Positions 2,198-60,663 of a stretch of 64,000 bases of DNA are shown one piece after another (positions within the stretch are counted from its first letter, which is position 1; every line of letters starts with the position of its first letter). Source of the stretch: Bacillota bacterium. GTDB lineage: Bacteria > Bacillota > Dethiobacteria > DTU022. Under the pieces are notes generated by a model, which was given only the letters and a program-made list of their open reading frames with translations, ran no database searches and was not told the DNA's origin. Made by a program: the position numbers and the translations under genes. The stretch lies in assembly GCA_051748565.1 (NCBI GenBank), contig JBNJHN010000003.1, forward strand, positions 9,596 through 73,595. Reading direction: 5' to 3'.

Positions 2198-3379
2198 ATG
2201 AGCAAACCAGTTGTAGTAAGTGCAGTTAGAACAATTGCAGGCAGTTATGGTGGAAGTTTAAGTAGCTTCAGTGCTCCCCAGTTGGGAGCGAAAGTAATCG
2301 AAGAGGTAGTTAAGAGAGCAGGTATTTCAGGTGAGGAAGTTGATGAATTGGTATTTGGCTGCGGTTGGCAAGCCGGAATAGGTCCCAATGTGGCTCGTTA
2401 TTCTTCAGTACTAGCCGGCTTGCCGGTGGAGGTGCCCGCTTATACGATTAACATACGTTGTGCTTCCAGTTTGCAGGCCACTATCCAGGGGGCTAAATCT
2501 ATCCTCCTCGGTGATGCGGATACGGTAGTGGTCGGTGGCACAGAATCTGCTTCCAATGTACCCTACATCCTTGATAAGGCTCGCTGGGGGGCACGGATGG
2601 GTGATATGATTGCTTACGACGGACTGCACAAGGATGGCTTCATGTGTCCTATGGCCGGAATGCTGATGGGTGGTACTGCGGAACTATTGGCCGAAAAATA
2701 CGATATAGATCGTGTAGAGCAGGACAGTTTTGCCCTGGAAAGTCACCAGAAAGCAGTTAAAGCATCGGAAGAAGGTAAATTCAAAGATGAAATTTTACCG
2801 GTGCAGGTGGTACAGAAAAAACAGACATTGACGGTTGATCAGGAAGAAATCCCGAGGGCCGATGCTTCCATAGAAAGAATGGCTAAACTGCCTCCGGTCT
2901 TTAAAAAGGAAGGAACTGTAACAGCCGGTAACAGCTGTGCTCTTTCCGATAATGCCTCAGCCCTGTTAATCATGTCTGAAGAAAAAGCAAAATCCCTGGG
3001 ACTTACACCTCTGGCTGCAATACGAGGTTATGCCGCAGGGGGAGTTGATCCTAAATACATGGGTATTGGACCCGTAAAAGCTATCCCCATGGCATTGGAA
3101 AAAGCCGGAGTGAACCTGGATGATATCGATTTAATAGAACTGAACGAAGCTTTTGCAGTTCAATACCTGGCTGTGGAAAGAGAAATGAAGTGGAACCGCG
3201 ATAAGGTTAATGTTTACGGTGGAGCTATCGCCCTCGGTCATCCCGTAGGCGCAACCGGTACCAAGCTTATAACCACCCTGCTTTATGCATTGAAAGCACA
3301 TGACAAGGATTTAGGTCTGGTCAGCGCGTGTGTTGGCGGAGGCCAGGGGGTAGCCTTAATCTTTGAAAGATTAAGTTAA
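2198..3379 (+). CDS. Acetyl-CoA C-acetyltransferase (thiolase II family)
   Basis: 393 aa. The Cys-containing N-terminal thiolase region and the C-terminal GHPVGATG / CVGGGQG signatures are present. An RBS-like GGGGGG stretch precedes the ATG. Confidence 0.9.
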   Translation: MSKPVVVSAVRTIAGSYGGSLSSFSAPQLGAKVIEEVVKRAGISGEEVDELVFGCGWQAGIGPNVARYSSVLAGLPVEVPAYTINIRCASSLQATIQGAKSILLGDADTVVVGGTESASNVPYILDKARWGARMGDMIAYDGLHKDGFMCPMAGMLMGGTAELLAEKYDIDRVEQDSFALESHQKAVKASEEGKFKDEILPVQVVQKKQTLTVDQEEIPRADASIERMAKLPPVFKKEGTVTAGNSCALSDNASALLIMSEEKAKSLGLTPLAAIRGYAAGGVDPKYMGIGPVKAIPMALEKAGVNLDDIDLIELNEAFAVQYLAVEREMKWNRDKVNVYGGAIALGHPVGATGTKLITTLLYALKAHDKDLGLVSACVGGGQGVALIFERLS

Positions 3380-3409
3380 AATTACTACTTAAAACGGGAG
3401 GCTTAATTA

Positions 3410-4297
3410 TTGATGGAAGTAAAGAAATGTTTTATTTTAGGCGCCGGGATTATGGGTACGGGAATAGCTCAACTAATGGCTCAAAAAGGTATTGAAGCTA
3501 TCCTGGTAGATTTAGATGAAGCAATTGCCAAGCGCAGCTTGGCTAATATTGAAAAAGGGCTCCAAAAAAGAGTTGAGAAGGGAAAGATGAGTGAAGAAGA
3601 GGTAAAAGATATTCTTGGGCTCATCAAAATTTCCACGAAAATGGAAGATGCTGCGGACGCTGATTTCATAATTGAAGCAATTGTCGAAAATGTTGAAGTC
3701 AAGCAGAAGGTTTTTGGAGAGCTCGAAAAAATAGCAAGGGAAGATGTAATCCTGGCAACAAATACCACTGCCTGTTCAATTTCTGAAATAGCATCAGCTG
3801 TTTCAAACCCAGGCAGGGTTGTGGGAATGCATTTCTTTAACCCGGCGGTGGTCATGAAACTGGTCGAAATAATGCCTGCTGTATCAACTGATGCTGAAGT
3901 GGTCAATAAAACAAGGGAATTAGCTGAATTTCTCGGCAAAGAACCTGTAGTTACCGCCAAAGAAGGCATCGCCGGAATAGCCAGCCGTGTTCTGGCGGCG
4001 TTGCTTAACGAAGCTGTCTGGGTTCTCGATGAAGGAATCGGGACTGTGAGCGATATTGATAAAGCCATGCAGATGGGAGCCAATCAGCCTATGGGGCCGC
4101 TGACATTAATTGATCTGATTGGCATTGATACTCACCTGGCGAAAACCAGAACTCTTTATGAAAAATTCGGTGATCCGCGTTATCGTCCCTGTTACCTGCT
4201 GGAGAAAATGGTCAATGCCGGATACCTGGGCCGTAAAACTAAAAAAGGATTTTACGATTACGAGCAGGATCCCCCTGTTCCGATGCAGCTAAAATAA
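3410..4297 (+). CDS. hbd: 3-hydroxybutyryl-CoA dehydrogenase
   Basis: Rossmann motif GAGIMGTGIAQ at the N-terminus and 3HCDH N- and C-domain architecture. Sits in an operon with thiolase, ACAD and crotonase. Confidence 0.9.
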   Translation: MMEVKKCFILGAGIMGTGIAQLMAQKGIEAILVDLDEAIAKRSLANIEKGLQKRVEKGKMSEEEVKDILGLIKISTKMEDAADADFIIEAIVENVEVKQKVFGELEKIAREDVILATNTTACSISEIASAVSNPGRVVGMHFFNPAVVMKLVEIMPAVSTDAEVVNKTRELAEFLGKEPVVTAKEGIAGIASRVLAALLNEAVWVLDEGIGTVSDIDKAMQMGANQPMGPLTLIDLIGIDTHLAKTRTLYEKFGDPRYRPCYLLEKMVNAGYLGRKTKKGFYDYEQDPPVPMQLK

Positions 4298-4331
4298 AAC
4301 AAGTAAGGCCAATAAAAAGGAGGTGTTGTTC

Positions 4332-5486
4332 TTGGATTTTGATCATACTCCAGAACAAGAAAGCGTTAGGAAAATGGTTTGTGAATTTGTTTCTAAAGAA
4401 ATTACCCCCTACGCCGGAGAATGGGACAAGGAAGAAAAGTTTCCCTGGGACGTTTGGAAGAAAATGGGCGAAACCGGTATTATCGGAACGGTTATACCCG
4501 AAGAATATGAAGGCAGCGGGATGGATAATATAACCCATGCAATTGTTGCCGAAGAACTGGGTTACGGCTGCACCTCTATGAGAGGAACTTATTCAGTCCA
4601 GATTTCTCTCGTAGCCAAAACCATCCTAACCTTTGGCACTGAAGAACAGAAACAAAAATACCTACCCGGTATGGCCATGGGTGAAATTATCGGCTGCTAT
4701 GGCCTTACTGAACCTGACTCAGGCAGCGATGCAGCCAGCCTTTCATCCACAGCGGAAGAAGACGGTGACTACTACATCCTCAACGGTAATAAGATGTGGA
4801 TTACCAACGCCGGAATTGCCGATGTAGCCATGGTTTTTGCCAAGACAGACAAAAGCGCCGGCGCCAGGGGAATAACTGCTTTTCTTGTAGAAAAAGACAC
4901 TCCCGGCTATTCAACTGAAAAAATTCATGACAAGTTGGGATTGCGGGCTTCCGATACATCGGAGATAATTCTCGACAATGTCAGAGTCCATAAAGATGCA
5001 ATCCTTGGCGAAAAAGGGAAAGGTTTTAAAGTGGCCCTTTCAGCCCTTGACAATGCCCGCTTTACAGTAGCGGCAGGTTGTGTGGGGGCTGCCCAGTCAG
5101 CGCTGGATACGGCAAAGCAGTATGCTAAAGACAGGGTTCAGTTTGGAAAGCCGATTGCCGGTCATCAGCTGGTTCAGCAATTAATCTCCAATATGGTTTT
5201 AGACATTGAATGCGGCCGGTTGTTAGTTTACCGGGCAGGACACCTGAAAAATAAAAAAGTTCCCAATACCCGAGAGACTTCGCTGGCCAAATACTTCTGC
5301 ACCGAAATGGTTAACCGGGTGGCCTATAATGCCATTCAGGTTTTAGGTGGTTACGGTTTTTCCGGGGAATATCCCCTGGAAAGGATTTACCGTGATGCGC
5401 GGGTTAATACCCTTTATGAGGGAACATCCCAAATTCAACAGCTTATCCTGGGCAATATCGAGCTGGGTATACCTGCTTTTACTTAG
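4332..5486 (+). CDS. Acyl-CoA dehydrogenase (short-chain/glutaryl-CoA dehydrogenase-like)
   Basis: ACAD family, about 385 aa, with a C-terminal YEGTSQIQ motif. AAGGAGG is followed by a TTG at 4332 that gives the typical M-D-F-x-x-T-x-E-Q N-terminus. The ORF track lists a GTG at 4323 that is too close to the RBS. Confidence 0.8.
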   Translation: MDFDHTPEQESVRKMVCEFVSKEITPYAGEWDKEEKFPWDVWKKMGETGIIGTVIPEEYEGSGMDNITHAIVAEELGYGCTSMRGTYSVQISLVAKTILTFGTEEQKQKYLPGMAMGEIIGCYGLTEPDSGSDAASLSSTAEEDGDYYILNGNKMWITNAGIADVAMVFAKTDKSAGARGITAFLVEKDTPGYSTEKIHDKLGLRASDTSEIILDNVRVHKDAILGEKGKGFKVALSALDNARFTVAAGCVGAAQSALDTAKQYAKDRVQFGKPIAGHQLVQQLISNMVLDIECGRLLVYRAGHLKNKKVPNTRETSLAKYFCTEMVNRVAYNAIQVLGGYGFSGEYPLERIYRDARVNTLYEGTSQIQQLILGNIELGIPAFT

Positions 5487-5559
5487 ATCTGCATTTTTTA
5501 ATAATTTAAGGGAAAGAAGTCAGTTTTCTTCTTTCTCTTATATATGGAGAGAGGTAAAC

Positions 5560-6339
5560 ATGTTTAATCTATTAAAATTCGTTAAAGAAACCCCGCTGGC
5601 TATTATTACCATAAATCGTCCGGAAGTCAGAAATGCACTATCAAATGCCCTGGTGGAAGAACTGGCGGAAGCTTTTTCCCAGGTTAAAAATGATCCGGAA
5701 ATAAGAACACTGATCATAACCGGAGAAGGGGATAAAGCTTTTATGGCCGGGGCGGATATCAAGGAACTTGAAGAAAGGGATTTTATTAAAGGCCGGGAGC
5801 AGACCAGGCGCCGCCAGGAAGTATTTAATATGCTCTGGGAGATGCCGATTCCTGTAATAGCGGCCATAAATGGTTATGCTTTGGGAGCAGGTTTAGAGTT
5901 GGCCATAGCCTGCACTTTACGTCTGGCTTCTTCGAACGCCCAGATGGGTTCACCGGAAATTAACCTGGGAATCATTCCAGGCGATGGCGGCACTCAGCGC
6001 CTGCCGCGTTTGGTTGGTTTCGGAAGAGCCATGGAAATGGCCTTAACAGGTGGCATGATTGATGCTGAAGAAGCATATCGTATCGGACTGGTTAATAAAC
6101 TGGTTGAACCGGAAAACCTGATGGAAGAAGCAAAGAAATACGCACATAAGCTTGCTGCGAAGTCACCGCTTGCTGTCCAGTACGCAAAAGAGGCAGTTAA
6201 TCGTTCCCTGGAGATGGGACTCTATGAAGGCCTTGCCCATGAATCCTATCTTCATGCACTGGCTTGTGCCACGGAGGATAAGAAAGAAGGCGTGAAGGCT
6301 TTTCTGGAAAAAAGAAAGCCCGAGTACCAGGGGAAATAA
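5560..6339 (+). CDS. Enoyl-CoA hydratase (crotonase family; 3-hydroxybutyryl-CoA dehydratase-like)
   Basis: 259 aa from the ATG at 5560, preceded by GGAGAGAGG. Crotonase fold with AAINGYALGAGLELA and FMAGADIKEL. The longer 5347 ORF overlaps the ACAD 3' end and is rejected. Confidence 0.85.
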   Translation: MFNLLKFVKETPLAIITINRPEVRNALSNALVEELAEAFSQVKNDPEIRTLIITGEGDKAFMAGADIKELEERDFIKGREQTRRRQEVFNMLWEMPIPVIAAINGYALGAGLELAIACTLRLASSNAQMGSPEINLGIIPGDGGTQRLPRLVGFGRAMEMALTGGMIDAEEAYRIGLVNKLVEPENLMEEAKKYAHKLAAKSPLAVQYAKEAVNRSLEMGLYEGLAHESYLHALACATEDKKEGVKAFLEKRKPEYQGK

Positions 6340-6653: not shown

Positions 6654-8633
6654 ATGAGATATGCTGAAACAGGGTATAATTTGGAAATTAACTTATCGAC
6701 TGGAAACATTGAGAAGGTGGAAACCGATCCGGAATTAACAAAAATGCATCTGGGCGGCCTGGGAACCAATGCCAGGTTGTTATGGGATCGGGTCCCCCCC
6801 GAAGCTGAACCTTTTTCTCCGGATAATCTTTTAATTTTTGGGACAGGCCTCTTGTGCGGCACCCCTGCTATAGGAGCCAACCGGACTATAATTAGCACTT
6901 ACTCTCCTCAGACTTTATTTATGGCTTTTTCCATGATGGGAGGATTCTTTGCCCCGGAATTAAAATATGCCGGCTATGATAAAGTAATCTTTAGCGGTAA
7001 GTCGCCGAATCTTGTTTACATATGGATTAATAATGACAAAGTAGAAATACGTGATGCTTCTCATTTGCAGGGCAAAGGGGCGGTTCAAACCGAAAAGCTT
7101 ATTCGAGAGGAGCTGCAGGAACCCAATGCCCAGGTAGCCGCTATCGGCCTGGCCGGTGAAAACAGGGTCTATATGGCCTCCATTGAGCACGGACGATCCA
7201 GCGCCAGCAGACTGGGTCTGGGTGCCGTGATGGGTGACAAGGGGATAAAAGCAATAGCTGTACGTGGAACTAACGATGTCAATGTAGCCCGACCGGTTGA
7301 TTTAATTAATTTTTGTACAGATATTCTGAATTATATTCCGGAAAGAGATGGCAATCCGATTCCCGGAGTGATGCCTATCTTAGCCGGGCTTGGTTCGCCG
7401 AAAGAGATGTTAATTCATGATGAAAAGTGGCATACTGAGAATTTCATGTGGGGTAATGCCAGAACACGGATAAAAGATTACTGGACCAAGGATATTGAAG
7501 ATAAGTGGAAAGAATCGCAGGAGAGTGCGCGAAAGCGTCTGATAAGCTGTTATAACTGCCCGATGGAATGCGGAGCCATAATTTCTATTCCCGGTATATC
7601 AACTTACATGATGAAATGTTTCTCGAAGCTCACCTACACCATGGCAGCATACTCAGACCTTGATTTCGGTTTTAGAATAGCGCAGCGTGCCACAGAATAC
7701 GGTGTCGATGGATTTTCTATGCCACAGGTTATGGCCTTTGCCCTCGAGCTTTATGAGGCCGGCATCCTTACAGATGATGACTTTCCGGGTATGCCTTCCG
7801 ATAATGAGGAAAGATTTTTCTGGTTGCTGGACAGGATTGTCCGGCGGGAAGGGATTGGTGATATTCTGGCCGATGGTGTTTACTGGGCAGCCCGCCGGAT
7901 TGGTAAGGGAGCGGAGGAATATGATCATAATACTATTAAAAAGCATGAGCAGTTACCGCTCAAGCTATCAATGCTGAATCCGATTTATTTCCTGATGTGG
8001 GCCACCGGCGAAAAGATTAATATTACCCAGATTGAAGGGAATTTCCCCCAGGCACCTTTTCCCACCCGTGAGGAGCGGGAAGAGTTTGTTAAGGATTGGG
8101 TTCATGTTCCTGATGAGAAGTTCAAGAAATACTTTTTAGATTGGGAACTGCGCGGGGAAAATTCATTTCCTTATTACCCTCCCGTTGATGCTACCTGTGA
8201 AATTGTTGATTGGCAGGAGACCATGCATTATATTGATGATTCCCTCGGATTATGTGCCGGTTTATCATCGTTTCCCCTAAAGCCTCCCTATCATATCCAT
8301 AACCTGCCGATCCTGATTTCGAAAGCAGCCGGAATTGATATGGATAAAGATAAACTGTGGGAAATTGCCAAGAGGAATCGGACTTTATTGAGAGCGATTA
8401 ATGTAAGAAGAGGTTTAAGAAGGGAAGATGACCGTCCTCCTGAGAATCATTGGAAGAAGAGATTCCCCGAACTCGAAGTTCAGCTCTTGGATCAATATTA
8501 CAAACTTAAAGGTTTCAATAACGATGGTGTTCCAACCAGGGAATCCTTACTTGAATTGGGTATGGATTACGTTGGCGAAGACCTGGAGAAGAGAGGGATT
8601 TATGACAATGGCGAAAGTAAAAAAGAAAGTTAA
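6654..8633 (+). CDS. bamB: Tungsten-containing aldehyde:ferredoxin oxidoreductase-family protein; BamB-like active-site subunit of class II benzoyl-CoA reductase
   Basis: 659 aa, AOR N-terminal and catalytic domains. It is the first gene of an AOR / ferredoxin / HdrD / HdrA / MvhD / NuoE / NuoF / NuoG-like cluster. Confidence 0.85.
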   Translation: MRYAETGYNLEINLSTGNIEKVETDPELTKMHLGGLGTNARLLWDRVPPEAEPFSPDNLLIFGTGLLCGTPAIGANRTIISTYSPQTLFMAFSMMGGFFAPELKYAGYDKVIFSGKSPNLVYIWINNDKVEIRDASHLQGKGAVQTEKLIREELQEPNAQVAAIGLAGENRVYMASIEHGRSSASRLGLGAVMGDKGIKAIAVRGTNDVNVARPVDLINFCTDILNYIPERDGNPIPGVMPILAGLGSPKEMLIHDEKWHTENFMWGNARTRIKDYWTKDIEDKWKESQESARKRLISCYNCPMECGAIISIPGISTYMMKCFSKLTYTMAAYSDLDFGFRIAQRATEYGVDGFSMPQVMAFALELYEAGILTDDDFPGMPSDNEERFFWLLDRIVRREGIGDILADGVYWAARRIGKGAEEYDHNTIKKHEQLPLKLSMLNPIYFLMWATGEKINITQIEGNFPQAPFPTREEREEFVKDWVHVPDEKFKKYFLDWELRGENSFPYYPPVDATCEIVDWQETMHYIDDSLGLCAGLSSFPLKPPYHIHNLPILISKAAGIDMDKDKLWEIAKRNRTLLRAINVRRGLRREDDRPPENHWKKRFPELEVQLLDQYYKLKGFNNDGVPTRESLLELGMDYVGEDLEKRGIYDNGESKKES

Positions 8634-9179: not shown

Positions 9180-10331
9180 GTGGATACTGAAGCCCCGATT
9201 AAAGAGGTTATAGAGGAGATAAAAGAATTTGGTGGCGACGCTGTAAAATTTTGTTATCAATGTGGAAAATGCGATACAGTATGTCCCTGGAATAAAGTTA
9301 CAAAATTTAGCATACGCAAGTTGATACGTGAGGCTACTTTTGGCATACCGGAAGTAGAGCTTGAAGAAGTCTGGCGCTGTACTACCTGTGGTAAATGCCC
9401 CCAGGAATGTCCCAGGGACGTAAAGCAAGTAGATGATGTTGTGGCCATGCGCAGGATAGCCGCGGAATATGGTGTATCTTCAACCCTGCTGAAACCTGTT
9501 CGTTCAGCAAGCGCAAGCCTTGCCGCTGAAGGTAATCCCGTTGTCCAGGATCGATCCAGGAGGACTGAATGGGCAGAAGGTCTGAATATAAAACCATTCA
9601 CAGAAGAAATGGAAATTCTTTATTTCTCCTGCTGCTATGTCTGTTATGATCAGAGATTGAAGGAAATTGGTCAGGCCACGGTCAGGCTTCTTAATAAAGC
9701 TGAAGTCGATTTCGGCACACTGGGCACCCTGGAGAACTGTTGTGGAGAAAGTATCCGTAAAACAGGCAATGAAGAAATTTTTAAAAGTCTGGCCAGAGAA
9801 AATATTAAAACCTTTATAGAACACGGGGTCAAGAAAATTCTCGTTTCTTCTCCACATTGCTACCATACTTTTAAGAACGAATATCCTGAATTCAAAGCGA
9901 ATTTTGAAGTGGTTCACATTACCCAGTATTTGCACGATCTAGTTAACGAGGGAAGACTTCAGATCAATAAGGAGTATGAAAAGAAAGTAACCTATCATGA
10001 TCCCTGTTATCTGGGCCGGCATAACGGTATTTATGACATTCCGCGGGAAATTTTAAAAAAGATACCCGGCCTGGAACTAAACGAGATGGCCGAATCGCGT
10101 GAAGACAGTTTATGCTGCGGGATGGGTGGAGGCAGGATTTGGATCGATACCAAGATGCCTGAGAGATTCTCCAATATCAGGATTCAAGATGCAATCAATC
10201 TTGGAGCCGAAGTCCTTGTCACCTCTTGCCCTTATTGTGTTGATGCTCTCGAGGAAAGCAGATCGGGGTTAAACCTGGAAAGTGCTATAGAGATAAAAGA
10301 TATCACGGAAATACTCCAGGAAGTGATCTGA
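9180..10331 (+). CDS. bamD: HdrD-like heterodisulfide-reductase-type protein with a ferredoxin domain and two CCG Cys-rich domains, BamD-like
   Basis: CYQCGKCDTVCP and CTTCGKCPQECP motifs are followed by CCG-type motifs (CCGESI, CCGMGGG). The GTG start lies 11 nt after AAAGGTGGGG. Confidence 0.75.
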   Translation: MDTEAPIKEVIEEIKEFGGDAVKFCYQCGKCDTVCPWNKVTKFSIRKLIREATFGIPEVELEEVWRCTTCGKCPQECPRDVKQVDDVVAMRRIAAEYGVSSTLLKPVRSASASLAAEGNPVVQDRSRRTEWAEGLNIKPFTEEMEILYFSCCYVCYDQRLKEIGQATVRLLNKAEVDFGTLGTLENCCGESIRKTGNEEIFKSLARENIKTFIEHGVKKILVSSPHCYHTFKNEYPEFKANFEVVHITQYLHDLVNEGRLQINKEYEKKVTYHDPCYLGRHNGIYDIPREILKKIPGLELNEMAESREDSLCCGMGGGRIWIDTKMPERFSNIRIQDAINLGAEVLVTSCPYCVDALEESRSGLNLESAIEIKDITEILQEVI

Positions 10332-10400: not shown

Positions 10401-13400
10401 GTGGAAAATAAATTGGAAATAAATAGCGGGCAACTTGTCAGAAACCTTGCAGGCAGTAATTTTGGAGATGTAATGGTTGTAGGTGGAGGGGTCAGCGGCA
10501 TCCAGTCATCCTTAGATCTTGCTGCTGCCGGTTTTAAGGTTTATCTTGTTGACAGCGCCCCTGCTATTGGCGGCCATATGGCCCAGCTGGATAAGACCTT
10601 TCCGACCAATGATTGCTCTATGTGAATACTCTCACCCAAACTGGTCGAGGTCGACCGGAATACCAATATTGAGGTCCTTTCCTATACTGAAGTGGATAGT
10701 GTGGAAGGCGAAGCGGGGAACTTTAAAGTAACCCTGAGGAAAAAACCCAGGTATGTATTAGAAGACAAGTGCACCGGCTGCACTGTCTGCGTTGAGTATT
10801 GTCCTGTAAAGTACCCTGATAAATTTAATCAGGATATATCGAAGAATAAAGCGATTCATATATACTATTCTCAGGCAATCCCCCTGATCACCTATATAGA
10901 TGAAAGCTGCATTTACCTGAAAGAGAAAAAGTGTCGCATCTGTGAGGCAGTATGTAAAAACGAGGCAATAGATTTTAATCAGACCGAAGAGAAGGTGGAA
11001 ATAAAAGTCGGGGCTGTAGTTCTGGCTCCGGGTTATGAACCATTTGATCCGGGCATAAGAGAGGACTATGGCTACGGTAAGTTCGAGAATGTGATAACCA
11101 GCATGGATTATGAACGGTTGACGGATTCCACGGGTCCTTATGAAGGCCAGGTCCTGCGCCCTTCCGATATGAAGCATCCCCATAAAGTAGCCTGGATCCA
11201 GTGTGTCGGTTCCAGGCAGGTTAACCCACCGGGCGCGAAAAGCTATTGTTCCTCGGTCTGCTGCACCTATACGCAGAAACAGGTAATATTAACAAAAGAA
11301 CATGACCCTGAATCTGAATGTGTCGTATTCCATAATGACATTCGATCCTACGGCAAAGATTTCGAGCGATTTTATAAAAGGGCAGAGGATCTGCCCGGGG
11401 TTCAATTTATCAGAAGCTATCCGTCGGTGGTAAAGGAAGATCCGGAAACCAGGAGTGTTACGATAAAATATGCAACCAATGATGACGGTGTGAAGGAAGA
11501 AGAATTTGACATGGTTGTATTATCGGTCGGGTTAAATCCACCCGCTGATTTTGAGAAACTGGCTGATAAGTTTGGTATTGAATTAAATGATCATGGCTTC
11601 TGCAAAACTAATCCTGTAAATACAATGCAGACTTCCCGCCCGGGATTATTTATCAGCGGCGCTTTCCAGGGTCCGTTAGATATCCCCGAATCTGTTGTAA
11701 CTGCGAGCGGCGCAGGGTCTCAGTGTGGCGAGCTTCTTAATTACAGGAGAGGGGATCTCTCCAAAGAAAGGGTATATCCTCCGGAAAGGGATGTTTCTTC
11801 AGAAGAACCCAGAATCGGCGTTTTTGTATGTCACTGTGGAGCGAATATCGGCAGGGTGGTTGATGTTCCTTCCAATGTTGAATATTCCTTAACCCTGCCC
11901 AACGTTGTCTATGCCCAGGAACAGCTTTTTTCATGTGCAACTAATTGTGCCGAAGAAATTACTGAGAAGATAAAAGAGAAAGAGCTAAACCGCGTAATCG
12001 TTGCCGCCTGTTCTCCGAGGACACTTGAAATGTTATTCCGGGATACACTTCGGGAGGCGGGGCTGAATCAATACTACTATGAAATGGCCAATATCAGGGA
12101 ACATTGCTCCTGGGTTCACCCCAAAGAAAAAGATAAAGCTACTCAAAAATCCAAGGATATTATTCGAATGGCAGTAGCCCGTGCCCGCCACCTGGAGCCG
12201 TTAATGGAGATAGATCTGCCGGTTGATAAAAGGGCTCTGGTGGTTGGTGGAGGAATTGCCGGCATGACCTGTGCACTCTCTATTGCCGCTCAGGGGCATG
12301 AAGTGCACCTGGTGGAAAAGGATAAAAACCTGGGAGGAACAGCAAGGAAAATATATGATACCCTGGAAGGGCTTGATGTTCAGACCTATTTACGCGACAT
12401 GATCGGCAAAGTTTATCAAAACCCCCTGATCCATGTTTATACCGATGCTGCAATCAAACAGAACACAGGGTATATTGGAAATTTTATTACCAGGGTGGAG
12501 ATTGATGGAAGAATAGCAGAAATTAAGCATGGAGCAACTGTGATTGCCACGGGTGCTGATGTTTATACACCCAGCGAATACCTTTATGGTAAAGATGACA
12601 GGGTTCTGACCCATCTCGAGTTGGAAGAAAAGATTGTTGAAGAAGATGAAAAAGTTATTAATGCTGAAAACCTGGTTATGATTCAGTGCGTGGGTTGCAG
12701 AAATGAAGACAGGGATTATTGTAGTCGAATCTGCTGTAACGAATCCGTAAAAAACGCCCTGAAGCTAAAAGAGAAAAACCCGCAGATGGATATCTATATT
12801 CTCTTCAGGGACATGAGAACCTATGGTTATAATGAAGATTTTTACAGGGCTGCGGCGGATAAAGATATCAAATTTATTCGTTACGAACCTGAAGAAGAAC
12901 CACAGATTGAAGCTGCTGAGGGAGAAAACGGGCCTGTTTTAAGGGTTACCCTGCCCGATTATGTTTTAGAGAAAAAACTTGAAATAGATGCTGATATTAT
13001 TGCACTGGCTGCTGCTGTTATTCCTTCTGCAGGGGCTAAAGAAATAGAAAGCTTATTCAAGGTTGGCTTGAACCAGGATGGTTTCTTTAAAGAGGCCCAT
13101 GTTAAATTAAGGCCGGTTGAATTTGCTGCAGACGGTGTTTATCTTTGTGGCTTGGCACACTATCCAAAGCTGATTTCAGAGACGGTCAGCCAGGCTTATG
13201 GTGCCGCGGGCCGGGTTTTAACCCTTCTTTCAAAAGATATCGTGACCGCTTCCGGCTCTATATGTGAGGTTGAAGAAGAAAAGTGTGTTTCCTGTGGAGC
13301 ATGTATTGCAGCCTGTACCTACGGTGCCATAGAATTCCGGGAAACAGAAATGGGTATTAAAGCTTTTGTCAATCCTGTTCTTTGTAAAGGTGACGGAGTC

Positions 13401-13526: not shown

Positions 13527-13671
13527 AACTTTTGGCAATACAAAATGTTTAGTTACTCAATTTAATATAAATCAAAATAAAATTTCTATTTCACCATAGC
13601 AAGGGAAATGAGTCTTTGGAAGTTTTTAAAAAATATATTTAAACGTATTAGAAACACAGGAGGTGTGGCGA

Positions 13672-14439
13672 ATGAGTACAGAAATGACTTTTAAACCAAG
13701 CATTATTGGTTTTGTATGTCAGTGGTGAGGATATGGAGCTGCGGATCTGGCTGGAGTTTCCAGACTACAATATACAACTGAAATCAGGCTTATTCGCGTT
13801 ATGTGCACCGGTAGAATCGACCTCGCACATATAATTAGGGCTTTCTCAAATGGGATAGATGGTGTTTTTATTGGTGGTTGTCGTTTAAATGAATGTAATT
13901 ATATTACTCACGGAAATTTTCATGCACTAAATATTGTGCTTCTTTGTAAGAAAATGATGGAATACATCGGTCTGAATCCCGAACGTTTGAGGATTGAGTT
14001 TATGTCATCCGGGGAGGGGAATCTTTTTGCCGAAGTTGTCGATGATTTTGTAGAGACAGTCAGGGAGACAGGCCCTCTTGGAAAAAGTGAGGGAATTGAT
14101 GAAACTGGATTAAAAGTAAATCTTAAAGCTATAACCAGCTTAATCCCCTATATCAGGCTGGTGGAAAGTGAAAGGCTAAGAGGGCACTTTGGAACATTAG
14201 CAGAGTTCAGGGACTTTTATTCCAGCGAAGAATTTGAAAGGCTCTTCCAGGAGCTGATCGCAGATAAACTGGCAATCAGCCAAATTATGATGCTCCTGCG
14301 GGAAAAACCCCTGTCTACGGGAGAAATCTCTGAGATACTGGGTCTTTCCCCGTCTGAAATATCAAAACACCTGAATAGTTCAGCAAAGCTTGGCCTGGTC
14401 AGGTATGAGGAAAATGAGAAGCGCTTTGCTTCTGTCTGA
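13672..14439 (+). CDS. bamF: MvhD/FlpD-like (methyl-viologen-reducing hydrogenase delta subunit family) protein, BamF-like, with in-frame UGA (selenocysteine) at 13726-13728
   Basis: The ATG at 13672 follows AGGAGGTG. Translation [53 protein letters not shown] places the UGA at the second Cys of the conserved CxWC..GADLAG MvhD motif. It is in frame with the track ORF 13801-14439. Confidence 0.75.
13746..13764 (+). other. Candidate SECIS hairpin about 18 nt downstream of the bamF UGA
   Basis: tCTGGAgttTCCAGa forms a 5-bp stem with a 3-nt loop. An alternative pairing is tctgg/ccaga with a 9-nt loop. Confidence 0.35.
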
Positions 14440-19479: not shown

Positions 19480-19669
19480 TATTTCTCATTCCCTTCATTG
19501 ATTGCATGAATAATTGTTAACCAGGCAACCACTTTTATTCTATCACAAGCTAACCTTAATCATAAAACACAATTACCGATTCCGATGGCAAGCCAATAGA
19601 GGGGTTTTCAAAAATGCTGATGATCAAGTATACTGTTCCCATAGTAGATTTAGGCAAGGAGGAAAGTTT

Positions 19670-20074
19670 ATGGATAATCGGGAGGCAGATTTCTCAGAGC
19701 AGCTTAAAAAGCGATACCGGCAGGATCTTTTTCCTCAGTTATTGGGGATCAAGCTCGAATCAGTGCGAGCCGGTTATGCAAGGGTAAGTATGGAGGTTAC
19801 TCCCGATATGCAAAATTTTAACAGCGTTACTCACGGAGGGGCTATGTTTACCCTGGCAGATACCGCTTTCGGTCTTGCTTCAAACACCCGCGGAACAGCA
19901 TTGGCCCTTCATATCAGTGTCAATTATGTGAAAGCGACCGTAAGCGGTGATTTCTTAACTGCGGTGGCAGAGGAGGAACATCTTACCCGTTCGACAGGAA
20001 TTTACTGTATGACCGTTTTCCGTGGCAAAGAAACAGTAGCTTTGCTGAGGGGAACCGTATTTCGTAAAAGCTGA
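19670..20074 (+). CDS. PaaI/hotdog-fold acyl-CoA thioesterase
   Basis: SVTHGGAMFTLADTAFGLA hotdog signature. The ATG at 19670 follows AGGAGGAAAG. The longer 19514 ORF has no RBS. Confidence 0.75.
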   Translation: MDNREADFSEQLKKRYRQDLFPQLLGIKLESVRAGYARVSMEVTPDMQNFNSVTHGGAMFTLADTAFGLASNTRGTALALHISVNYVKATVSGDFLTAVAEEEHLTRSTGIYCMTVFRGKETVALLRGTVFRKS

Positions 20075-20110
20075 TCAAATACATTTCATCATTGTTGAAA
20101 GGGGTGTGTT

Positions 20111-20656
20111 TTGCCAGTGATCATGGAATTGAATGGGAAAAAACCGCAGGTAGCGGCGGGTGCCTTTATCGCGCCGACTGCAGCGTTGATTGGTGATGTG
20201 GTGGTAGAGGAGGGAGCCAGTATCTGGTTTGGGGCAGTTCTGAGGGGGGATTTTGGGCGGATATTTGTAGGGAAAAATACCAGTATTCAGGACAATGTAG
20301 TTGTGCACACAATGGTTGATGGAGAGACGATAATCGGCGATGACGTCACTGTGGCTCACGGTTCAGTATTGCATAACTGCACGGTTCGCCATGGTGCAAT
20401 CATCGGGTTGAACGCAGTGCTGCTGGATTTTTGTGAAATCGGTGAGAAAGCAATGGTTGCAGCAGGCAGTGTGGTAACTGCCAATATGAAGATACCTGCA
20501 AAACATCTGGCCGCAGGTGCCCCGGCGATAATAAAAAAAAAGATTGCCGGCGCATCCTTAATTTGGGTAGACTCCAGCGCTGCTCATTACAGGGAGATGG
20601 CTAATAGTTACCTGGAGCAGGGGATTGGGCGGGCTGACAGTTTGCTTTCTGATTGA
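20111..20656 (+). CDS. Gamma-class carbonic anhydrase / PaaY-like hexapeptide-repeat protein
   Basis: Left-handed beta-helix hexapeptide repeats with the His ligands of gamma-CA-like proteins. 181 aa. Confidence 0.7.
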   Translation: MPVIMELNGKKPQVAAGAFIAPTAALIGDVVVEEGASIWFGAVLRGDFGRIFVGKNTSIQDNVVVHTMVDGETIIGDDVTVAHGSVLHNCTVRHGAIIGLNAVLLDFCEIGEKAMVAAGSVVTANMKIPAKHLAAGAPAIIKKKIAGASLIWVDSSAAHYREMANSYLEQGIGRADSLLSD

Positions 20657-20895
20657 TAATAAGCTTTTTTCGGATATTTATTATAATTTTATTATTTAAA
20701 GAGAATATAACTTTTTCAAAATGGTTCAACCTTATTACATATGATATTATAAAACGTAGGTTAAATAGATATCTAAAATGGATAACCGACCAGAATCAAT
20801 TGCATTTGGAGAGGTTTTTCAGCTGCTTTGACGAATTAACGATCGCAAAACGGCAAGTAAACCTTTTCAATATATATGAAAGGAAGTGTTTAAAT

Positions 20896-21318
20896 ATGGA
20901 CAAACTGATGCTTGCAACAGATGGTTCAAAGCACTCAATGAAAACGATTGATCAGTCAATTAAACTGGCTTCTAAACTGGGAGCCGAGGTAACAATCCTG
21001 TATATTATTGAAGGTAATCCCCAGATCGGTTATGATCTGTTCGCCGCCTATAAAAAAACCGAAGCCGAGTTAGAGAATACTGCGAAAAAAGTTTTGGAGA
21101 AATCGGCACAGCCCTTTATAGACAAAGGGATCTCGGTTAAAACAAGACTTGAAAAGGGACACCCGGCAGATATTATATGTGAAATCGCTGAGAAAGAAAA
21201 ATTTAATTACGTTATTCTTGGAAGCAGGGGCCTGGGCGGAATTAAAGAAATGCTGCTTGGGAGTGTCAGTAATGCCGTCGCCAATTGCATCAAAACAAAC
21301 ATAATAATTATTAAATAA
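20896..21318 (+). CDS. Universal stress protein (UspA family)
   Basis: MDKLMLATDGSKHS ... VILGSRGLGGIKEMLLGSVSN is the canonical Usp ATP-binding C-terminus. The ATG at 20896 is in frame with the track ORF and has an upstream AAGGAAG. Confidence 0.75.
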   Translation: MDKLMLATDGSKHSMKTIDQSIKLASKLGAEVTILYIIEGNPQIGYDLFAAYKKTEAELENTAKKVLEKSAQPFIDKGISVKTRLEKGHPADIICEIAEKEKFNYVILGSRGLGGIKEMLLGSVSNAVANCIKTNIIIIK

Positions 21319-34110: not shown

Positions 34111-35256
34111 TTGGATCTAACCAAACTAATAGAACCTTTCGAAAATGCGCTTATTGATCCGACAGAAGAGATCAGACAGTGGAAGAGAGAAAAAGGGAGT
34201 AAGGCAGTCGGTTTTTTAATGGCCGATGTTCCCGAGGAGTTAATTCATGCCGCAGGATTTCTACCTTATGGAATCACCGGCGGAAATGCCGAGATGGAGC
34301 TGGCTGAAACACACCTGCAGCCCTGGGTCTGCTCTTACGTTCGTAATTCTCTCTCTCTTGCCCTTAGCGGAAAACTTGATTTCTTAGATGGTTTGATTAT
34401 CCCGCATACCTGTGATACAACGCGTATGCTGCTTGATTTATGGAAGCATGTCCGGCCCTTTCCCTACATGGAAGATTATCGCCTGCCGCGGCAGGTTGAT
34501 CGCCCCAGCGCCGGAAATTATCTTATTAAAGAGTTGGAAAGAGTTAAATGTGGATTAGAGCAGTATGCAGGTGAATCAATCGGTCCGGACACCCTTAAAA
34601 AGAGTATAATTCTCTATAATCAAAACCGGGAACTTTTACGCAGGGTTTTCGATATCCATGCCCAGGATCCAGCTATAATCAGCAGCCGTGAAATATATAA
34701 ACTGATTAATGGTGCCATGGTTATGCCCAGGGAAAGGGTCAATAAGCTATTGAACCAGATAGTCGATATATTGGATGAATCAAACATTTGCGAAGCTAAC
34801 GGCAACTATTTGCGTCTATTATTATCAGGCACGTTGTTGGAACCCTTCGAAATACTGGATTTAATTGACAGTTGCGGGGGCGCTGTAATCGGAGACGATT
34901 TTCAAAATGGTTATCGATATATCGAAACTGATGTCCTGGTCAGGGATGATATAATGGGGGCCTTTGCCGAGCGGCAGCTGAATCGCATTCCGTCTGCAGC
35001 ATTTGATATAAAGGAGAGGCCTAGAAGGGAATTTTTGGCAGAGCTTGCTAAAGAGAAACATGCCAACGGTGTAATTTTTTTGCACCAGAGTTTTTGTGAG
35101 CCTGAAAACTTTGATTACTATGACAACTTACAGGCCATGAAAAACGCCGGTATCCCGGCCATACGGCTCGAAACTCAATTTGGTCGATCCTCCCTGGGAC
35201 AAATGCGCACCAGGATTCAGGCCTTCATGGAGATGCTCGGGGGTGCAAGCCAATGA
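34111..35256 (+). CDS. 2-hydroxyacyl-CoA dehydratase / benzoyl-CoA reductase BcrC-BadD-HgdB-family subunit
   Basis: 381 aa, HGD-D family, with conserved Cys residues. Translationally coupled to the next paralog. Confidence 0.75.
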   Translation: MDLTKLIEPFENALIDPTEEIRQWKREKGSKAVGFLMADVPEELIHAAGFLPYGITGGNAEMELAETHLQPWVCSYVRNSLSLALSGKLDFLDGLIIPHTCDTTRMLLDLWKHVRPFPYMEDYRLPRQVDRPSAGNYLIKELERVKCGLEQYAGESIGPDTLKKSIILYNQNRELLRRVFDIHAQDPAIISSREIYKLINGAMVMPRERVNKLLNQIVDILDESNICEANGNYLRLLLSGTLLEPFEILDLIDSCGGAVIGDDFQNGYRYIETDVLVRDDIMGAFAERQLNRIPSAAFDIKERPRREFLAELAKEKHANGVIFLHQSFCEPENFDYYDNLQAMKNAGIPAIRLETQFGRSSLGQMRTRIQAFMEMLGGASQ

Positions 35257-36449
35257 CCTCCGGAGTAGCTTTTAAAACTGCTGCACTGATGAAAGAAGTT
35301 ATGGCCCGCTATAACGAAGCCGGGAAAGATGCCAAGAACAGAGGCATTCCAGTGGCCTGGGTAACTGCAGTATTTCCAGTCGAGATTATCTATGCTGCCG
35401 GTCTATTTCCTTATTATCCGGAAAACTTTGGTGCTGTGGCCGCTGCCAGGAAAGTTGCCGATAAGTTATCTTCAGCCGCTGAAGCGAGGGGATATGCCCG
35501 GGACCTCTGCGGCTATGCCCGTTGCGGTATTGGTGATGCCTATGCTACTGAGCACCCGATCGGAGAAATATTAAAACCGGACCTAATATTCTGCTGTAAC
35601 ACCCAGTGCGGTAGCCTGCCGAAATGGTTCGAGGTGGCCGGACGATTTTATAATGTTCCTTATTTCTTACTGGATTCCCCGCGGGTGGGAATTGAAACAG
35701 ACCAACTCTGTAAGGGTTATTACGTGGAACAGCTTTATGAAATGATTGCTTTCATCGAGAAGTTTACCGGGAATCCTTTTGATTTTGACCGATTAACCGA
35801 GGTGCTCACGCTTTCCAACGAAGCCTGCCGCCTGTGGAATGAAATTTTAGGTACTGCTGCCCTGAAGCCTGCTCCCTTTGGATTTTTTGATGCCAGTTTT
35901 CATATGGCCCCTATTGTCACCATGCGCGGAACACAGGAAGCAGTTAATTATTACCGTGCTTTAAAAGAGGAAATTGATAAACGGATCGAAAAGGGTATAA
36001 CAGCCATTCCTGATGAACGTTACAAGATATATTTTGACCATATACCCTGCTGGCCTAAATTACGCTGGTTTTCAGAACTTTTTGCTTCACGTGGAGCCCT
36101 GGTCGCTGTTTCGCAATATACTCATTCCTGGGCATATTCATTTGACCTTGAATGTCCCATGGAAAGCCTGGCTGAAAGTTATACTCATGAATTTGTTAAC
36201 CGCTGTTTTGACTACCGGGTACAGAGAAAGATTGATTTTATGGAAAAATACGGGGTTGATGGGTTTGTATTATTTTCCAACCGAAGCTGTAAACCCAATG
36301 CTATCGGGCTTTATTCCAAAAGCAAATTGATCAGAGAAAAAACGGGGCTTCCCGGGGTGGTATTTGAAGCCGACATGTCAGACCTGCGTTTTTTTTCCGA
36401 AGCACAGGTGTTGGCTAAACTGGAATCATTTTTTGAGCAGTTAAAATAA
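35253..36449 (+). CDS. 2-hydroxyacyl-CoA dehydratase HgdA/BcrB-family subunit (paralogous partner)
   Basis: 398 aa, same family. Start overlaps the upstream stop (ATGA). Confidence 0.75.
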   Translation: MTSGVAFKTAALMKEVMARYNEAGKDAKNRGIPVAWVTAVFPVEIIYAAGLFPYYPENFGAVAAARKVADKLSSAAEARGYARDLCGYARCGIGDAYATEHPIGEILKPDLIFCCNTQCGSLPKWFEVAGRFYNVPYFLLDSPRVGIETDQLCKGYYVEQLYEMIAFIEKFTGNPFDFDRLTEVLTLSNEACRLWNEILGTAALKPAPFGFFDASFHMAPIVTMRGTQEAVNYYRALKEEIDKRIEKGITAIPDERYKIYFDHIPCWPKLRWFSELFASRGALVAVSQYTHSWAYSFDLECPMESLAESYTHEFVNRCFDYRVQRKIDFMEKYGVDGFVLFSNRSCKPNAIGLYSKSKLIREKTGLPGVVFEADMSDLRFFSEAQVLAKLESFFEQLK

Positions 36450-36475
36450 TATTGCATACACGAGGAGGATTAACT

Positions 36476-38224
36476 TTGAAAAAACTAATGACAGGAAACG
36501 AAGCTTTTGCCTATGGGGCATATATTAACGGGGTTCGGGTCGGAGCGGCTTATCCGGGCACTCCCAGTTCGGAAATCATGGATAACTTTTCTAAATATCC
36601 GGGAGTTTTCGCCGAATGGTCTCCCAATGAAAAGGTGTCCTTGGACGTGGCTATCGGGGCAGCATATTCAGGTACTAGGGCCATGTGTGCAATGAAACAT
36701 GTCGGTTTGAATGTTGCGGCCGACTCGTTTTTTTATGCCGTTTACACAGGAATAAAGGCCGGACTGGTAATTGTTTGTGCTGATGATCCCGATATGCACA
36801 GCTCACAGAACGAGCAGGATAACCGGAATTATGCAAAATTTGCTAAATGTGCTATGCTGGAGCCCTCTGACAGCGAGGAAGCAAAGGAATTTACAGGTAT
36901 TGCTTTGGATATGAGTGAACAATTTGAAGCACCGGTTTTAGTCCGCAGCGTAACCAGGCTTTCTCATTCTTCTTCACCGGTGGAGGTAACTGAAACAAGT
37001 CCTCCACCTCCTCCGGAGGAACCACCCTTCTATGAGCGTGATGCGCAGAGATATGTAATGGTTCCCTCAAACGCCCGCCGCCGTCACCCGGTGGTTGAGG
37101 AACGTTTGAAAAAAATGGCTGAATTTGCCGAAACTATGCCGATTAATTATATCGAACCGGGAGATAAGAGCCTTGGTATTGTCAGTGCCGGGGTAAATTA
37201 CCAGTACGCTAAAGAGGTCTTTCCAAATGCTACTTTTTTAAAGCTTGGCATGGTTTATCCTCTGCCGGAAAAACTAATCCGCGAGTTTGCTTCACAGGTG
37301 GAGACAGTTATAGTAGTGGAAGAACTTGATCCGTTCCTGGAAGAGCAGCTGAAGCTGATGAGTATCGAGGTCAGGGGCAAAGATATATTTCCCATGATTG
37401 GTGAGTTTAGCCCATCCCTGGTCAGGCGATGCGCTGTAGATGCCGGTCTGATCGAAAGTCCGGAAATACCAACGGAAATTAATACAAACCTGGAGCGGCC
37501 GATCCGGCCTCCAATGCTTTGCCCCGGTTGTGGTCACCGTTCCCTTTTCCACGTCCTAAGAGAAGCCGGAGTTTTGATCACAGGCGATATCGGCTGCTAT
37601 ACACTGGGTTGGGCCCCTCCGCTAAGTGGTATGCATACTACGGGGTGTATGGGTGCAAGTATCGGTGTTGCCCATGGTATCGATAAGGGCGGTGTGAAAG
37701 ATGATGTAGTTGCCGTCCTGGGGGATTCCACTTTTCTACACTCCGGTATCCACCCGCTTATTGATGTTTTATATAACCGGGGCAATACAACTACCATTAT
37801 TTCTGATAACAGTGCAACAGCTATGACCGGTTTTCAGGAACACCCGGGAACCGGTAAAACACTGCAAAATAAAACGACAAAGCATGTAGATGCTGAGAAA
37901 CTGGTCCGGGGTATCGGCTTTGAGAAAGTCGATATCTGTGATCCCTATGAAATTGACCGAATGGCAGAAATACTGCAGGATCATTTGAAGAGCGGAGAAC
38001 CTTCTGTAATAATCGCCCGTCACCCTTGTGTGCTGAATGCGAAAGAAAAAAAGGAACCGCCTGTAGTCGATCCGGAGATTTGTATTAACTGTGGAATCTG
38101 CCTGGATATCGGCTGCTCCCCTCTGGTTCAGGAAGCTGAACATATACGTATTGATACCATGTTATGCAATGGTTGCGGTCTTTGTGTTAAGGTTTGTCCC
38201 CAGGAGGCCATTATCGAGCAGTAA
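36476..38224 (+). CDS. iorA: Indolepyruvate:ferredoxin oxidoreductase alpha subunit (TPP-dependent, C-terminal 2x[4Fe-4S])
   Basis: N-terminus MKKLMTGNEAFAYGA, TPP-binding GDIGCY..GD motif, and C-terminal CINCGICLDIGCSP / CNGCGLCVKVCP. The TTG at 36476 lies 6 nt after GAGGAGGA. An ATG at 36488 is an alternative start. Confidence 0.8.
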   Translation: MKKLMTGNEAFAYGAYINGVRVGAAYPGTPSSEIMDNFSKYPGVFAEWSPNEKVSLDVAIGAAYSGTRAMCAMKHVGLNVAADSFFYAVYTGIKAGLVIVCADDPDMHSSQNEQDNRNYAKFAKCAMLEPSDSEEAKEFTGIALDMSEQFEAPVLVRSVTRLSHSSSPVEVTETSPPPPPEEPPFYERDAQRYVMVPSNARRRHPVVEERLKKMAEFAETMPINYIEPGDKSLGIVSAGVNYQYAKEVFPNATFLKLGMVYPLPEKLIREFASQVETVIVVEELDPFLEEQLKLMSIEVRGKDIFPMIGEFSPSLVRRCAVDAGLIESPEIPTEINTNLERPIRPPMLCPGCGHRSLFHVLREAGVLITGDIGCYTLGWAPPLSGMHTTGCMGASIGVAHGIDKGGVKDDVVAVLGDSTFLHSGIHPLIDVLYNRGNTTTIISDNSATAMTGFQEHPGTGKTLQNKTTKHVDAEKLVRGIGFEKVDICDPYEIDRMAEILQDHLKSGEPSVIIARHPCVLNAKEKKEPPVVDPEICINCGICLDIGCSPLVQEAEHIRIDTMLCNGCGLCVKVCPQEAIIEQ

Positions 38225-38268
38225 GCCAATGCAAACTTTAATTAAAAATCCGAGAAGGAGGCATCGAT

Positions 38269-38853
38269 ATGAATAATATTGACTTTTTAATGGCCGGGGT
38301 CGGAGGCCAGGGTACAATACTGGCCAGCAATATTCTGGCACAAGTAGGCCTGAATTTAGGCTATGATGTTAAGAAAGCTGAAGTGCATGGAATGGCACAG
38401 CGGGGGGGACAGGTCGACAGCCATGTGCGCTGGGGTGAAAAAGTGCATTCCCCGCTGGTGGAAGAAAACAACGTTGATTACATTATTGGTTTTGAAATGT
38501 TGGAGGCATCCCGCTTTCCGCACTTTTTAAAGCAGGGTGGTACGGCTCTAGTTAATGACTATCGCATCAACCCGCCTGTGGTAAATCTTGGTACTGCCAC
38601 ATATCCGTCAAAAGAGGAAATTGAAGCTCTCCTGCTCAGCAGGGCTGGAAAAGTATATTGGATAGAAGGCACGGACATCGCCAGGGATTTGGGAAATCCC
38701 GCCATGGTCGGCGTGGTGCTGCTTGGCGCTCTATCAAATCTCGTCGGAGGTGATCAGGAAATTTGGCTTAAAGTTATCGGGCAAATGGTTCCGCCCAGGT
38801 TTGTAGAACTTAATAAAGAAGCTTTTTTAGCGGGTCGAAAAGCTACCATTTAA
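38269..38853 (+). CDS. iorB: Indolepyruvate oxidoreductase beta subunit
   Basis: 194 aa, pyruvate/ketoisovalerate oxidoreductase gamma-like domain (GVGGQG). Confidence 0.8.
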   Translation: MNNIDFLMAGVGGQGTILASNILAQVGLNLGYDVKKAEVHGMAQRGGQVDSHVRWGEKVHSPLVEENNVDYIIGFEMLEASRFPHFLKQGGTALVNDYRINPPVVNLGTATYPSKEEIEALLLSRAGKVYWIEGTDIARDLGNPAMVGVVLLGALSNLVGGDQEIWLKVIGQMVPPRFVELNKEAFLAGRKATI

Positions 38854-38888
38854 AGAATATAAAGTCATTTTATTAAGGAGGGAAAACG

Positions 38889-60247: not shown

Positions 60248-60387
60248 AAAATCAGCAGGGGAAAATAATAAATAGAATTGTGTGGGGACCAAATCGAAAG
60301 TTTCTAGAATTATTTCAATTAATTTTCCGGTTAAGAAGGATTTTTGCAGGTTTTGGCGAAGGAAAGTAAACATATATTGCGTATGAA

Positions 60388-60615: not shown

Positions 60616-60663
60616 CTTGTTTCCAGCAGTGAAATTTATAAAGAAAGGAGGATGGTAGTACTG

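Follow-up and report, generated by a model that had tools for sequence, protein, structure and literature searches.

How does a gene whose reading frame is interrupted at its nineteenth codon come to encode an apparently complete redox protein? The question is raised by bamF, a gene in a stretch of 64,000 nucleotides (nt) from a Bacillota bacterium (GenBank assembly GCA_051748565.1, contig JBNJHN010000003.1, positions 9,596 to 73,595 of the forward strand), which is referred to in full as the window. Judging from its predicted sequence and from the genes around it, the product of bamF is the MvhD-like adaptor subunit of a class II benzoyl-CoA reductase, and the gene is a member of the bamBCDEFGHI operon that would encode this tungsten-dependent, ATP-independent enzyme. 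The bamF frame consists of 18 codons, a TGA (UGA in the mRNA), 236 further codons and a second TGA, which ends the gene (Table 1). The first TGA is the sole break in this frame, which runs on through an ATG at 13801 (Met44). It is very probably a selenocysteine (Sec) codon, translated from the ATG at 13672 and served by a selenocysteine insertion sequence (SECIS) located just downstream, so that BamF would carry Sec at residue 19.

Translation from the ATG at 13672 with a strong ribosome-binding site had been proposed in an earlier reading of the DNA letters alone (the original prediction). It is borne out by the pattern of conservation, which starts at the Shine-Dalgarno sequence: the segment GGAGGTG and the ATG are kept in the two closest relatives, and the intergenic DNA farther upstream diverges and cannot be aligned. 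The segment ahead of the UGA behaves as coding sequence. Among 80 distinct loci, its proline, glycine and valine residues are each encoded by four different codons, and this combination of conserved amino acids with variable synonymous sites indicates that the segment is translated in the bamF frame. The Pfam family PF02662 (FlpD/MvhD) matches residues 11–134 over profile positions 1–123 of 123 with a score of 153.2 bits (cut-off of 22.3), so the domain needs residues that lie ahead of the UGA. Chains of MvhD and VhuD in the Protein Data Bank match BamF with E-values of 1e-31 to 1e-38.

The relatives of bamF fall into two types that differ in the codon at position 19. A scan of genomes gave 80 loci (81 copies) with TGA in this column (Sec-type), and a scan of metagenomes seeded with proteins carrying cysteine there (Cys-type) gave 61 more Sec-type loci as well as 18 Cys-type loci, which served as the control set. 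The TGA is present in all 143 TGA-type relatives from genomes and metagenomes, including 81 of 81 copies in the 80 genome loci and, likewise, the 61 metagenome loci. According to their record titles, the genome loci belong to Syntrophales, Desulfobacterales, other Thermodesulfobacteriota, Bacillota, Dehalococcoidia and Spirochaetes. The conserved sequence M-x5-F-K-P-K-I-L-G-F-V-C-[HQ]-W precedes the TGA in the 81 genome copies, and from codon −12 to codon +59 around it amino acids are conserved and synonymous sites are free in the codon table of the Sec-type loci. Both sides of the TGA therefore show coding-type conservation and are translated in one frame. Full-length homologs have cysteine in the UGA column (C-N-W-C-C/A), encoded by TGT or TGC in the 18 Cys-type loci, and the same column aligns with Cys16 of the CCNWC motif in MvhD (PDB id: 5ODC). 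A Sec-encoding UGA at the second cysteine of the CxWC motif in an MvhD-like BamF, as put forward in the original prediction, agrees with these counts, and the MvhD/BamF alignment suggested there as a check yields the expected cysteines.

Two observations on the Sec-type genes belong here. The residues around position 19 (13717–13734) read C-[HQ]-W-U-[AG]-Y in Sec-type BamF and C-N-W-C-C-Y in Cys-type BamF, so that the vicinal Cys20 and the asparagine at position −2 change along with the Sec/Cys state of the protein. A metagenome-assembled genome (MAG) of Dethiobacter alkaliphilus has two copies of Sec-type bamF separated by 3.6 kb (L019:5055 and L019:8708), with identical N-terminal and SECIS sequences.

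The putative SECIS is a hairpin in which an apical stem of five base pairs, CUGGA/UCCAG (13751–13755/13759–13763), closes a GUU loop (13756–13758). The apical stem extends to eight base pairs with a bulged A13764, giving −6.9 kcal/mol when the hairpin is folded by itself. Counted from the UGA, the extended stem starts after 19 nt, the 5-bp stem after 22 nt and the loop after 27 nt, in line with the small hairpin that the original prediction had placed 18–20 nt downstream. The bacterial SECIS (bSECIS) model asks for a loop of 3–9 nt, an upper stem of 4–16 bp, a G in the first two loop positions, a spacing of 16–37 nt from UGA to loop and a folding energy of −7.5 kcal/mol or lower (PMC13188914). 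With a 3-nt loop starting with G-U, a stem of 5 bp (8 bp with the bulged A) and a spacing of 27 nt, the geometry of the bamF hairpin lies within these limits.

Support for a function of this hairpin comes from codon usage. The apical stem never varies, so it shows no classical covariation, and the entropy of synonymous sites, with the Cys-type genes as a control, was used in place of covariation. In the 80 distinct Sec-type sequences, the five codons that make up the hairpin core (Ala-Gly-Val-Ser-Arg, codons 27–31) have entropies of 0, 0, 0, 0 and 0.23 bits, compared to 1.2–1.7 bits for other four-fold codons. When 100 distinct Sec-type sequences are pooled, the 15-mer is identical in 92, its 14-nt core in 97, and all five base pairs are formed in 99. 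In the 18 Cys-type genes, the choice of codons for this A-G-V-S-R peptide varies; arginine is CGN throughout, with no AGA, and the 5-bp stem forms in none of them. A block that is frozen in the presence of the UGA and free in the Cys-type genes points to a constraint at the RNA level that is tied to the UGA, and it is this contrast that sustains the SECIS reading of the hairpin given in the original prediction. Counting of pairs in the alignment shows that the hairpin pairs are kept in 93.8% of cells, compared to 29–50% when the partner columns are slid.

The lower stem is more variable than the core. Most sequences continue the helix past the bulged A by G-C, G-U and U-G/A pairs, and a subclass marked by Leu TTA and Ser AGT has the complementary segments GACUU/AAGUC in place of the lower stem. 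The Gln codon CAA, located two codons past the hairpin block (codon +14), is frozen as well and lies outside the stem in most sequences; it is possibly part of the recoding signal.

Several results weigh against the assignment of this UGA to selenocysteine. At −6.9 kcal/mol, the hairpin falls just short of the bSECIS cut-off of −7.5 kcal/mol, for which the review does not state the region computed. The 65 nt starting from the UGA (13726–13790) reach −12.9 kcal/mol, but the minimum-energy fold does so through a competing pairing, and with a z-score of −0.11 relative to shuffled sequences this region is unremarkable. Given this z-score and the competing fold, the folding of the single sequence is unusable as evidence. 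The SECIS structure prediction suggested as a check in the original prediction gives a matching geometry and no signal in the single-sequence fold. The competing fold (13734–13763) is made possible by a GGA at codon 22, rare among the relatives (3 of 80 sequences), which allows UGGAG to base-pair with the 3′ arm of the SECIS. Neither RNAalifold nor pair counting found compensatory changes in the apical stem of the Sec-type alignment. Searches against Rfam, at gathering thresholds for the window and with permissive settings around the UGAs of bamF and of its neighbor bamE (described below), returned no family, only chance matches at E-values of 5–10. No tRNA-Sec gene was found in the 64-kb window, and no selA, selB or selD among those of its open reading frames (ORFs) that were scanned with NCBIfam or Pfam, so the competence of the organism for Sec is inferred from its two intact genes with a UGA and a SECIS, bamE and bamF. 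Finally, the equivalence to Sec19 of the Geobacter enzyme is based on the identical codon number and motif.

How much of this could arise by chance can be estimated from the window itself, where 7–9% of TGA trinucleotides have, 16–37 nt downstream, the G-first loop of a Watson-Crick hairpin with 5 bp or more, and 24–35% do so when G-U pairs are allowed. Taken by itself, the hairpin is no more than chance would give. The comparative evidence, taken from alignments of the two gene types, is decisive.

Could the UGA nevertheless be a real stop? The ATG at 13672 would then open an 18-residue leader peptide, and functional BamF would start at 13801 (Met44) or at another downstream position. TGA does serve as a normal stop in other parts of the window, and the closest database proteins (70–94% identity) are indeed called as proteins of 212–240 residues that start after the TGA. 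However, the starts of these truncated entries are assorted and arbitrary, and the more distant homologs (60–71% identity) are full length, with 253–257 residues and cysteine in the UGA column. A start at Met44 would remove positions 1 to ~33 of the MvhD profile, including Cys16 and the CxxC/U motif. Direct reading finds no Shine-Dalgarno sequence ahead of 13801, as opposed to the strong and conserved one ahead of 13672, and the stretch from the TGA to Met44 shows protein-level codon conservation in the frame already used ahead of the TGA. A genuine stop is therefore highly improbable. It is barely conceivable that bamF is a pseudogene or that a TGC or TGT was missequenced or misassembled as TGA. 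A single base change (TGY to TGA) would suffice for this, and Cys-type homologs do exist, but the identical TGA recurs in 143 independently assembled loci, the nucleotide-invariant block downstream is found only in TGA-bearing genes, and the remainder of the gene and the operon are intact.

Two further explanations accept a part of the evidence. The UGA might be read through by near-cognate insertion of Cys or Trp, or the SECIS might be a relic left behind after loss of the Sec machinery, and the window, in which no genes for this machinery were seen, would be compatible with either. A relic would decay, however, and the SECIS core of the window equals the consensus, with both bamE and bamF keeping their UGA and hairpin; moreover, the normal outcome when a lineage gives up Sec is fixation of TGY, as seen in the 18 Cys-type genes. 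This explanation is very unlikely. Alternatively, the frozen 15-nt block might serve some other function of the RNA or DNA, such as a regulator site, an RNase site or the target of a small RNA, and the hairpin would be incidental to the decoding of the UGA. The lack of compensatory substitutions in the apical stem, where sequence is conserved as well as structure, and the equally frozen adjacent CAA speak for such a function. Yet the block is frozen only when a TGA lies 22 nt upstream and varies in Cys-type genes that encode the same peptide, its geometry matches the bSECIS model, and the exact core 13-mer occurs once in the window, at this site and nowhere else. Hardly any credence is given to a function of this kind.

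With Sec insertion as the preferred reading, decoding of bamF would follow the established bacterial pathway, in which SelB bound to a hairpin delivers Sec to the UGA upstream of it. As a ribosome translates from the ATG at 13672, SelB carrying GTP and Sec-tRNASec would bind the mRNA hairpin and would bring its Sec-tRNASec to the A site occupied by the UGA, where Sec would be inserted instead of termination taking place. The ordinary UGA stop on the same mRNA lies 711 nt farther on and would be read as a stop, having no such signal. A reassignment of TGA in the genetic code was considered and rejected: TGA ends 11 of the window's 46 long ORFs, including those of bamD, bamF, bamG and bamI. The use of TGA as an ordinary stop elsewhere in the window makes the recoding site-specific.

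The role of Sec19 in the protein can be approached through the other conserved residues. The BamF alignment contains five conserved Cys/Sec positions (16, 19, 45, 70 and 75), one more than the four ligands of a [2Fe-2S] cluster. In the Geobacter metallireducens enzyme, Sec19 adjoins the [2Fe-2S] cluster F1 and is not described as its ligand (10.64898/2026.04.10.717634). The original prediction had the UGA replace a cluster ligand, and this part of it probably does not hold: with five conserved positions for four ligands, and with the preprint placing Sec19 near the cluster, position 19 is probably a fifth, redox-active Cys/Sec beside the cluster, consistent with a residue that is spare to ligation. 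The ligands of F1 are presumably Cys16, Cys45, Cys70 and Cys75, by elimination from the five positions. Homology to the G. metallireducens structure suggests that Sec19 lies beside the BamF cluster F1 and corresponds to the cysteine of MvhD that takes part in a disulfide close to the cluster. Sec19 would probably serve as a redox relay of the selenol/selenenylsulfide type, connecting the one-electron cluster with the two-electron, bifurcating flavin adenine dinucleotide (FAD) of BamE.

The gene upstream, bamE, carries a UGA of the same kind. The original prediction had noted a second Sec codon in the adjacent subunit, and relatives corroborate it: all 66 related loci with a flank long enough to cover the motif C-S-M-U-ILSPK have the TGA. 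It is also followed by a conserved hairpin, and here relatives carry compensatory substitutions in the stem (U-A to C-G and G-C to C-G). The C-S-M-U motif of the window BamE is taken to be the counterpart of Cys59-Cys62 in Geobacter BamE, by its CxxC/CxxU form and approximate position. In Geobacter BamE, these two cysteines form a disulfide (10.64898/2026.04.10.717634), so a Cys-x-x-Sec in the window BamE would imply two Sec per protomer instead of one. If the two motifs do correspond, the double-Sec BamE/BamF would be the common environmental variant and the Geobacter enzyme a single-Sec one. It is conceivable, although rather unlikely, that Sec at both proposed relay sites represents an ancestral or kinetically preferred selenol/selenenylsulfide relay, and that the invariant BamF SECIS core marks a distinct, sequence-specifically recognized class that spreads horizontally with the operon. 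The loss of Cys20 in Sec-type BamF (C[HQ]W-U-[AG] instead of C-N-W-C-C) fits the double-Sec relay. The double-Sec arrangement and the change in the neighboring residue bear on electron transfer from the [2Fe-2S] cluster F1 to the flavin in HdrA-type systems; they do not change the classification of bamF. A scan for additional TGAs with long open frames on both sides gave no further candidate. A hidden in-frame stop among three consecutive ORFs with TTG starts (19514–21318) was considered and rejected, as these are separate genes.

The assignment of the operon rests on similarity and gene order. The window BamB matches the crystal structure of G. metallireducens BamB (PDB id: 4Z3W) with 1133 bits over 651 residues, and the domains identified with Pfam follow the order AFOR, 4Fe-4S, CCG/HdrD-like, HdrA-like, MvhD, NuoE-like, NuoF-like and 2Fe-2S/4Fe-4S. 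The BamB score and the domain sets of BamC to BamI in the neighbors together identify a genuine bamBCDEFGHI cluster. No promoter-like or terminator-like site was found between bamE and bamF. Directly upstream of bamB (2198–6339) are genes of the lower benzoyl-CoA pathway, encoding a thiolase, a 3-hydroxyacyl-CoA (3-hydroxybutyryl-CoA) dehydrogenase, a glutaryl-CoA dehydrogenase-like Acd and a crotonase. Farther downstream (34111–40454), the window encodes subunits similar to the B/C subunits of 2-hydroxyacyl-CoA dehydratase or class I benzoyl-CoA reductase, the alpha subunit of indolepyruvate:ferredoxin oxidoreductase and an acyl-CoA ligase, which suggests catabolism of aromatic amino acids or arylacetates beside the bam operon. 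Tandem glycine riboswitch aptamers (60383–60578; Rfam RF00504, 66.4 and 42.2 bits) are located ahead of ORFs at 60448–63518, the last of which encodes the P-protein of the glycine-cleavage system according to Pfam; the first two are assumed to be gcvT and gcvH.

Table 1. Coordinates, in window numbering, of bamF, its recoding elements and related features of the bam operon.
Feature	Position	Strand	Basis
BamB, tungsten AOR-type protein; followed by a 4Fe-4S protein	6654–8633		Pfam AFOR
CCG-domain HdrD-like protein	9180–10331		Pfam
bamE, HdrA-like protein, 1042 codons	10401–13526		Pfam
Companion Sec-UGA in bamE (predicted), motif C-S-M-U-ILSPK	10623–10625	+	Translation
bamE SECIS hairpin (predicted), CUGGUCG-AGGU-CGACCGG	10641–10658	+	Conserved block with compensatory changes
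Shine-Dalgarno sequence of bamF, AGGAGGTG	13658–13665	+	Direct reading; 6-nt spacer, then ATG 13672–13674
bamF, full coding sequence, 255 codons including Sec19; stop TGA 14437–14439	13672–14439	+	Translation, Pfam, homolog lengths
N-terminal 18 codons before the UGA, including Cys16	13672–13725	+	Amino acids kept, synonymous sites vary
MvhD/FlpD domain, residues 11–134, with conserved Cys16, Sec19, Cys45, Cys70 and Cys75	13702–14073	+	Pfam, alignment, PDB matches
UGA very probably decoded as selenocysteine (Sec19)	13726–13728	+	TGA column conserved; aligns with Cys in Cys-type homologs and with MvhD Cys16
bamF SECIS hairpin (predicted), UGGCUGGA-GUU-UCCAG(A)CUA	13748–13767	+	Fold of −6.9 kcal/mol; pairs conserved; bSECIS geometry
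Nucleotide-invariant block GCT GGA GTT TCC AGA (Ala-Gly-Val-Ser-Arg, codons 27–31)	13750–13764	+	Codon entropy, block identity
Gln codon CAA, invariant in Sec-type genes	13768–13770	+	CAA in 80/80 Sec-type; CAA 15, CAG 3 in Cys-type
C-terminal ArsR-type winged helix-turn-helix, residues 204–245	14281–14406	+	Pfam HTH_5, 2.2e-10

The nearest BamF sequences are found in a metagenome assembly at NCBI (94% identity) and in a MAG labelled Syntrophomonadaceae (84%); the best genome locus is 84% identical. Exact look-ups of BamB and of the 212-residue BamF call found no identical entry. Among the database hits, nearly all close relatives of BamF are systematically misannotated as truncated proteins, a practice that removes both Cys16 and Sec19. 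In annotation, the start of the gene should be placed at 13672 and its codon 19 read as Sec.

Selenocysteine in this enzyme has a history. Wischgoll et al. reportedly noted it in the Geobacter Bam complex in 2005, and Huwiler et al. are said to have given 'two selenocysteines' per dimeric Geobacter complex in 2019. Sec19 of BamF is already known, both from the Geobacter enzyme and through the MvhD/VhuD family of selenoproteins, and the locus adds nothing new in kind biologically. What it offers is a comparative case for a bacterial SECIS that is unusually clean, with synonymous sites frozen in the UGA-bearing genes alone. The double-Sec arrangement of BamE and BamF is the mildly new part of the finding.

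The system most similar to that of the window is the Bam complex of G. metallireducens, a one-megadalton assembly with the composition Bam[(BC)2DEFGHI]2, for which a 2026 preprint based on cryogenic electron microscopy describes a BamF with Sec19 modelled in the structure. This BamF is an MvhD-homologous adaptor that is more than 100 residues longer than MvhD and contacts BamI with a winged helix-turn-helix (10.64898/2026.04.10.717634). The window shares with it the gene order bamBCDEFGHI, an MvhD-like domain followed by an extension of ~100 residues with a winged helix-turn-helix, and Sec at residue 19. It comes from a different organism and differs in BamE, with Cys-x-x-Sec in place of the Geobacter disulfide. 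A second system is that of Desulfococcus multivorans, a Deltaproteobacterial anaerobic degrader of aromatic compounds, in which mvhD, hdrA and bamE carry a UGA and a SECIS, and the genome contains selA, selB and selD (PMC5109826). Unlike the window, where bamE and bamF are adjacent Sec genes, the D. multivorans list has bamE and a separate mvhD, but not bamF (PMC5109826).

MvhD/VhuD (PF02662, CxxU) is listed among the experimentally verified prokaryotic selenoproteins (PMC13188914). BamF has the fold and the conserved cysteine set of the archaeal proteins, its Sec19 aligns with Cys16 of CCNWC in MvhD, and it resembles them as a [2Fe-2S] adaptor that feeds an HdrA-type bifurcating flavin. The archaeal proteins, in contrast, are ~135–140 residues long, without the C-terminal extension and its helix-turn-helix, and VhuD contains two Sec. 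The recoding signals differ as well: archaeal SECIS elements have a different structure and are located in the 3′ untranslated region, whereas the bamF signal lies inside the coding sequence directly after the UGA. In this respect bamF follows the bSECIS model (bSECISearch; Zhang and Gladyshev 2005, via PMC13188914) and the SECIS of E. coli fdhF, with a hairpin inside the coding sequence 3′ of the UGA, a small G-U-first loop at 27 nt and a bulged nucleotide on the 3′ arm, although the primary sequence of the bamF hairpin is unrelated to that of fdhF. Compared to the bSECIS model, the bamF hairpin is slightly weaker in energy (−6.9 versus −7.5 kcal/mol), and its core is unusually invariant, with the same 14 nt in 97 of 100 sequences from several phyla.

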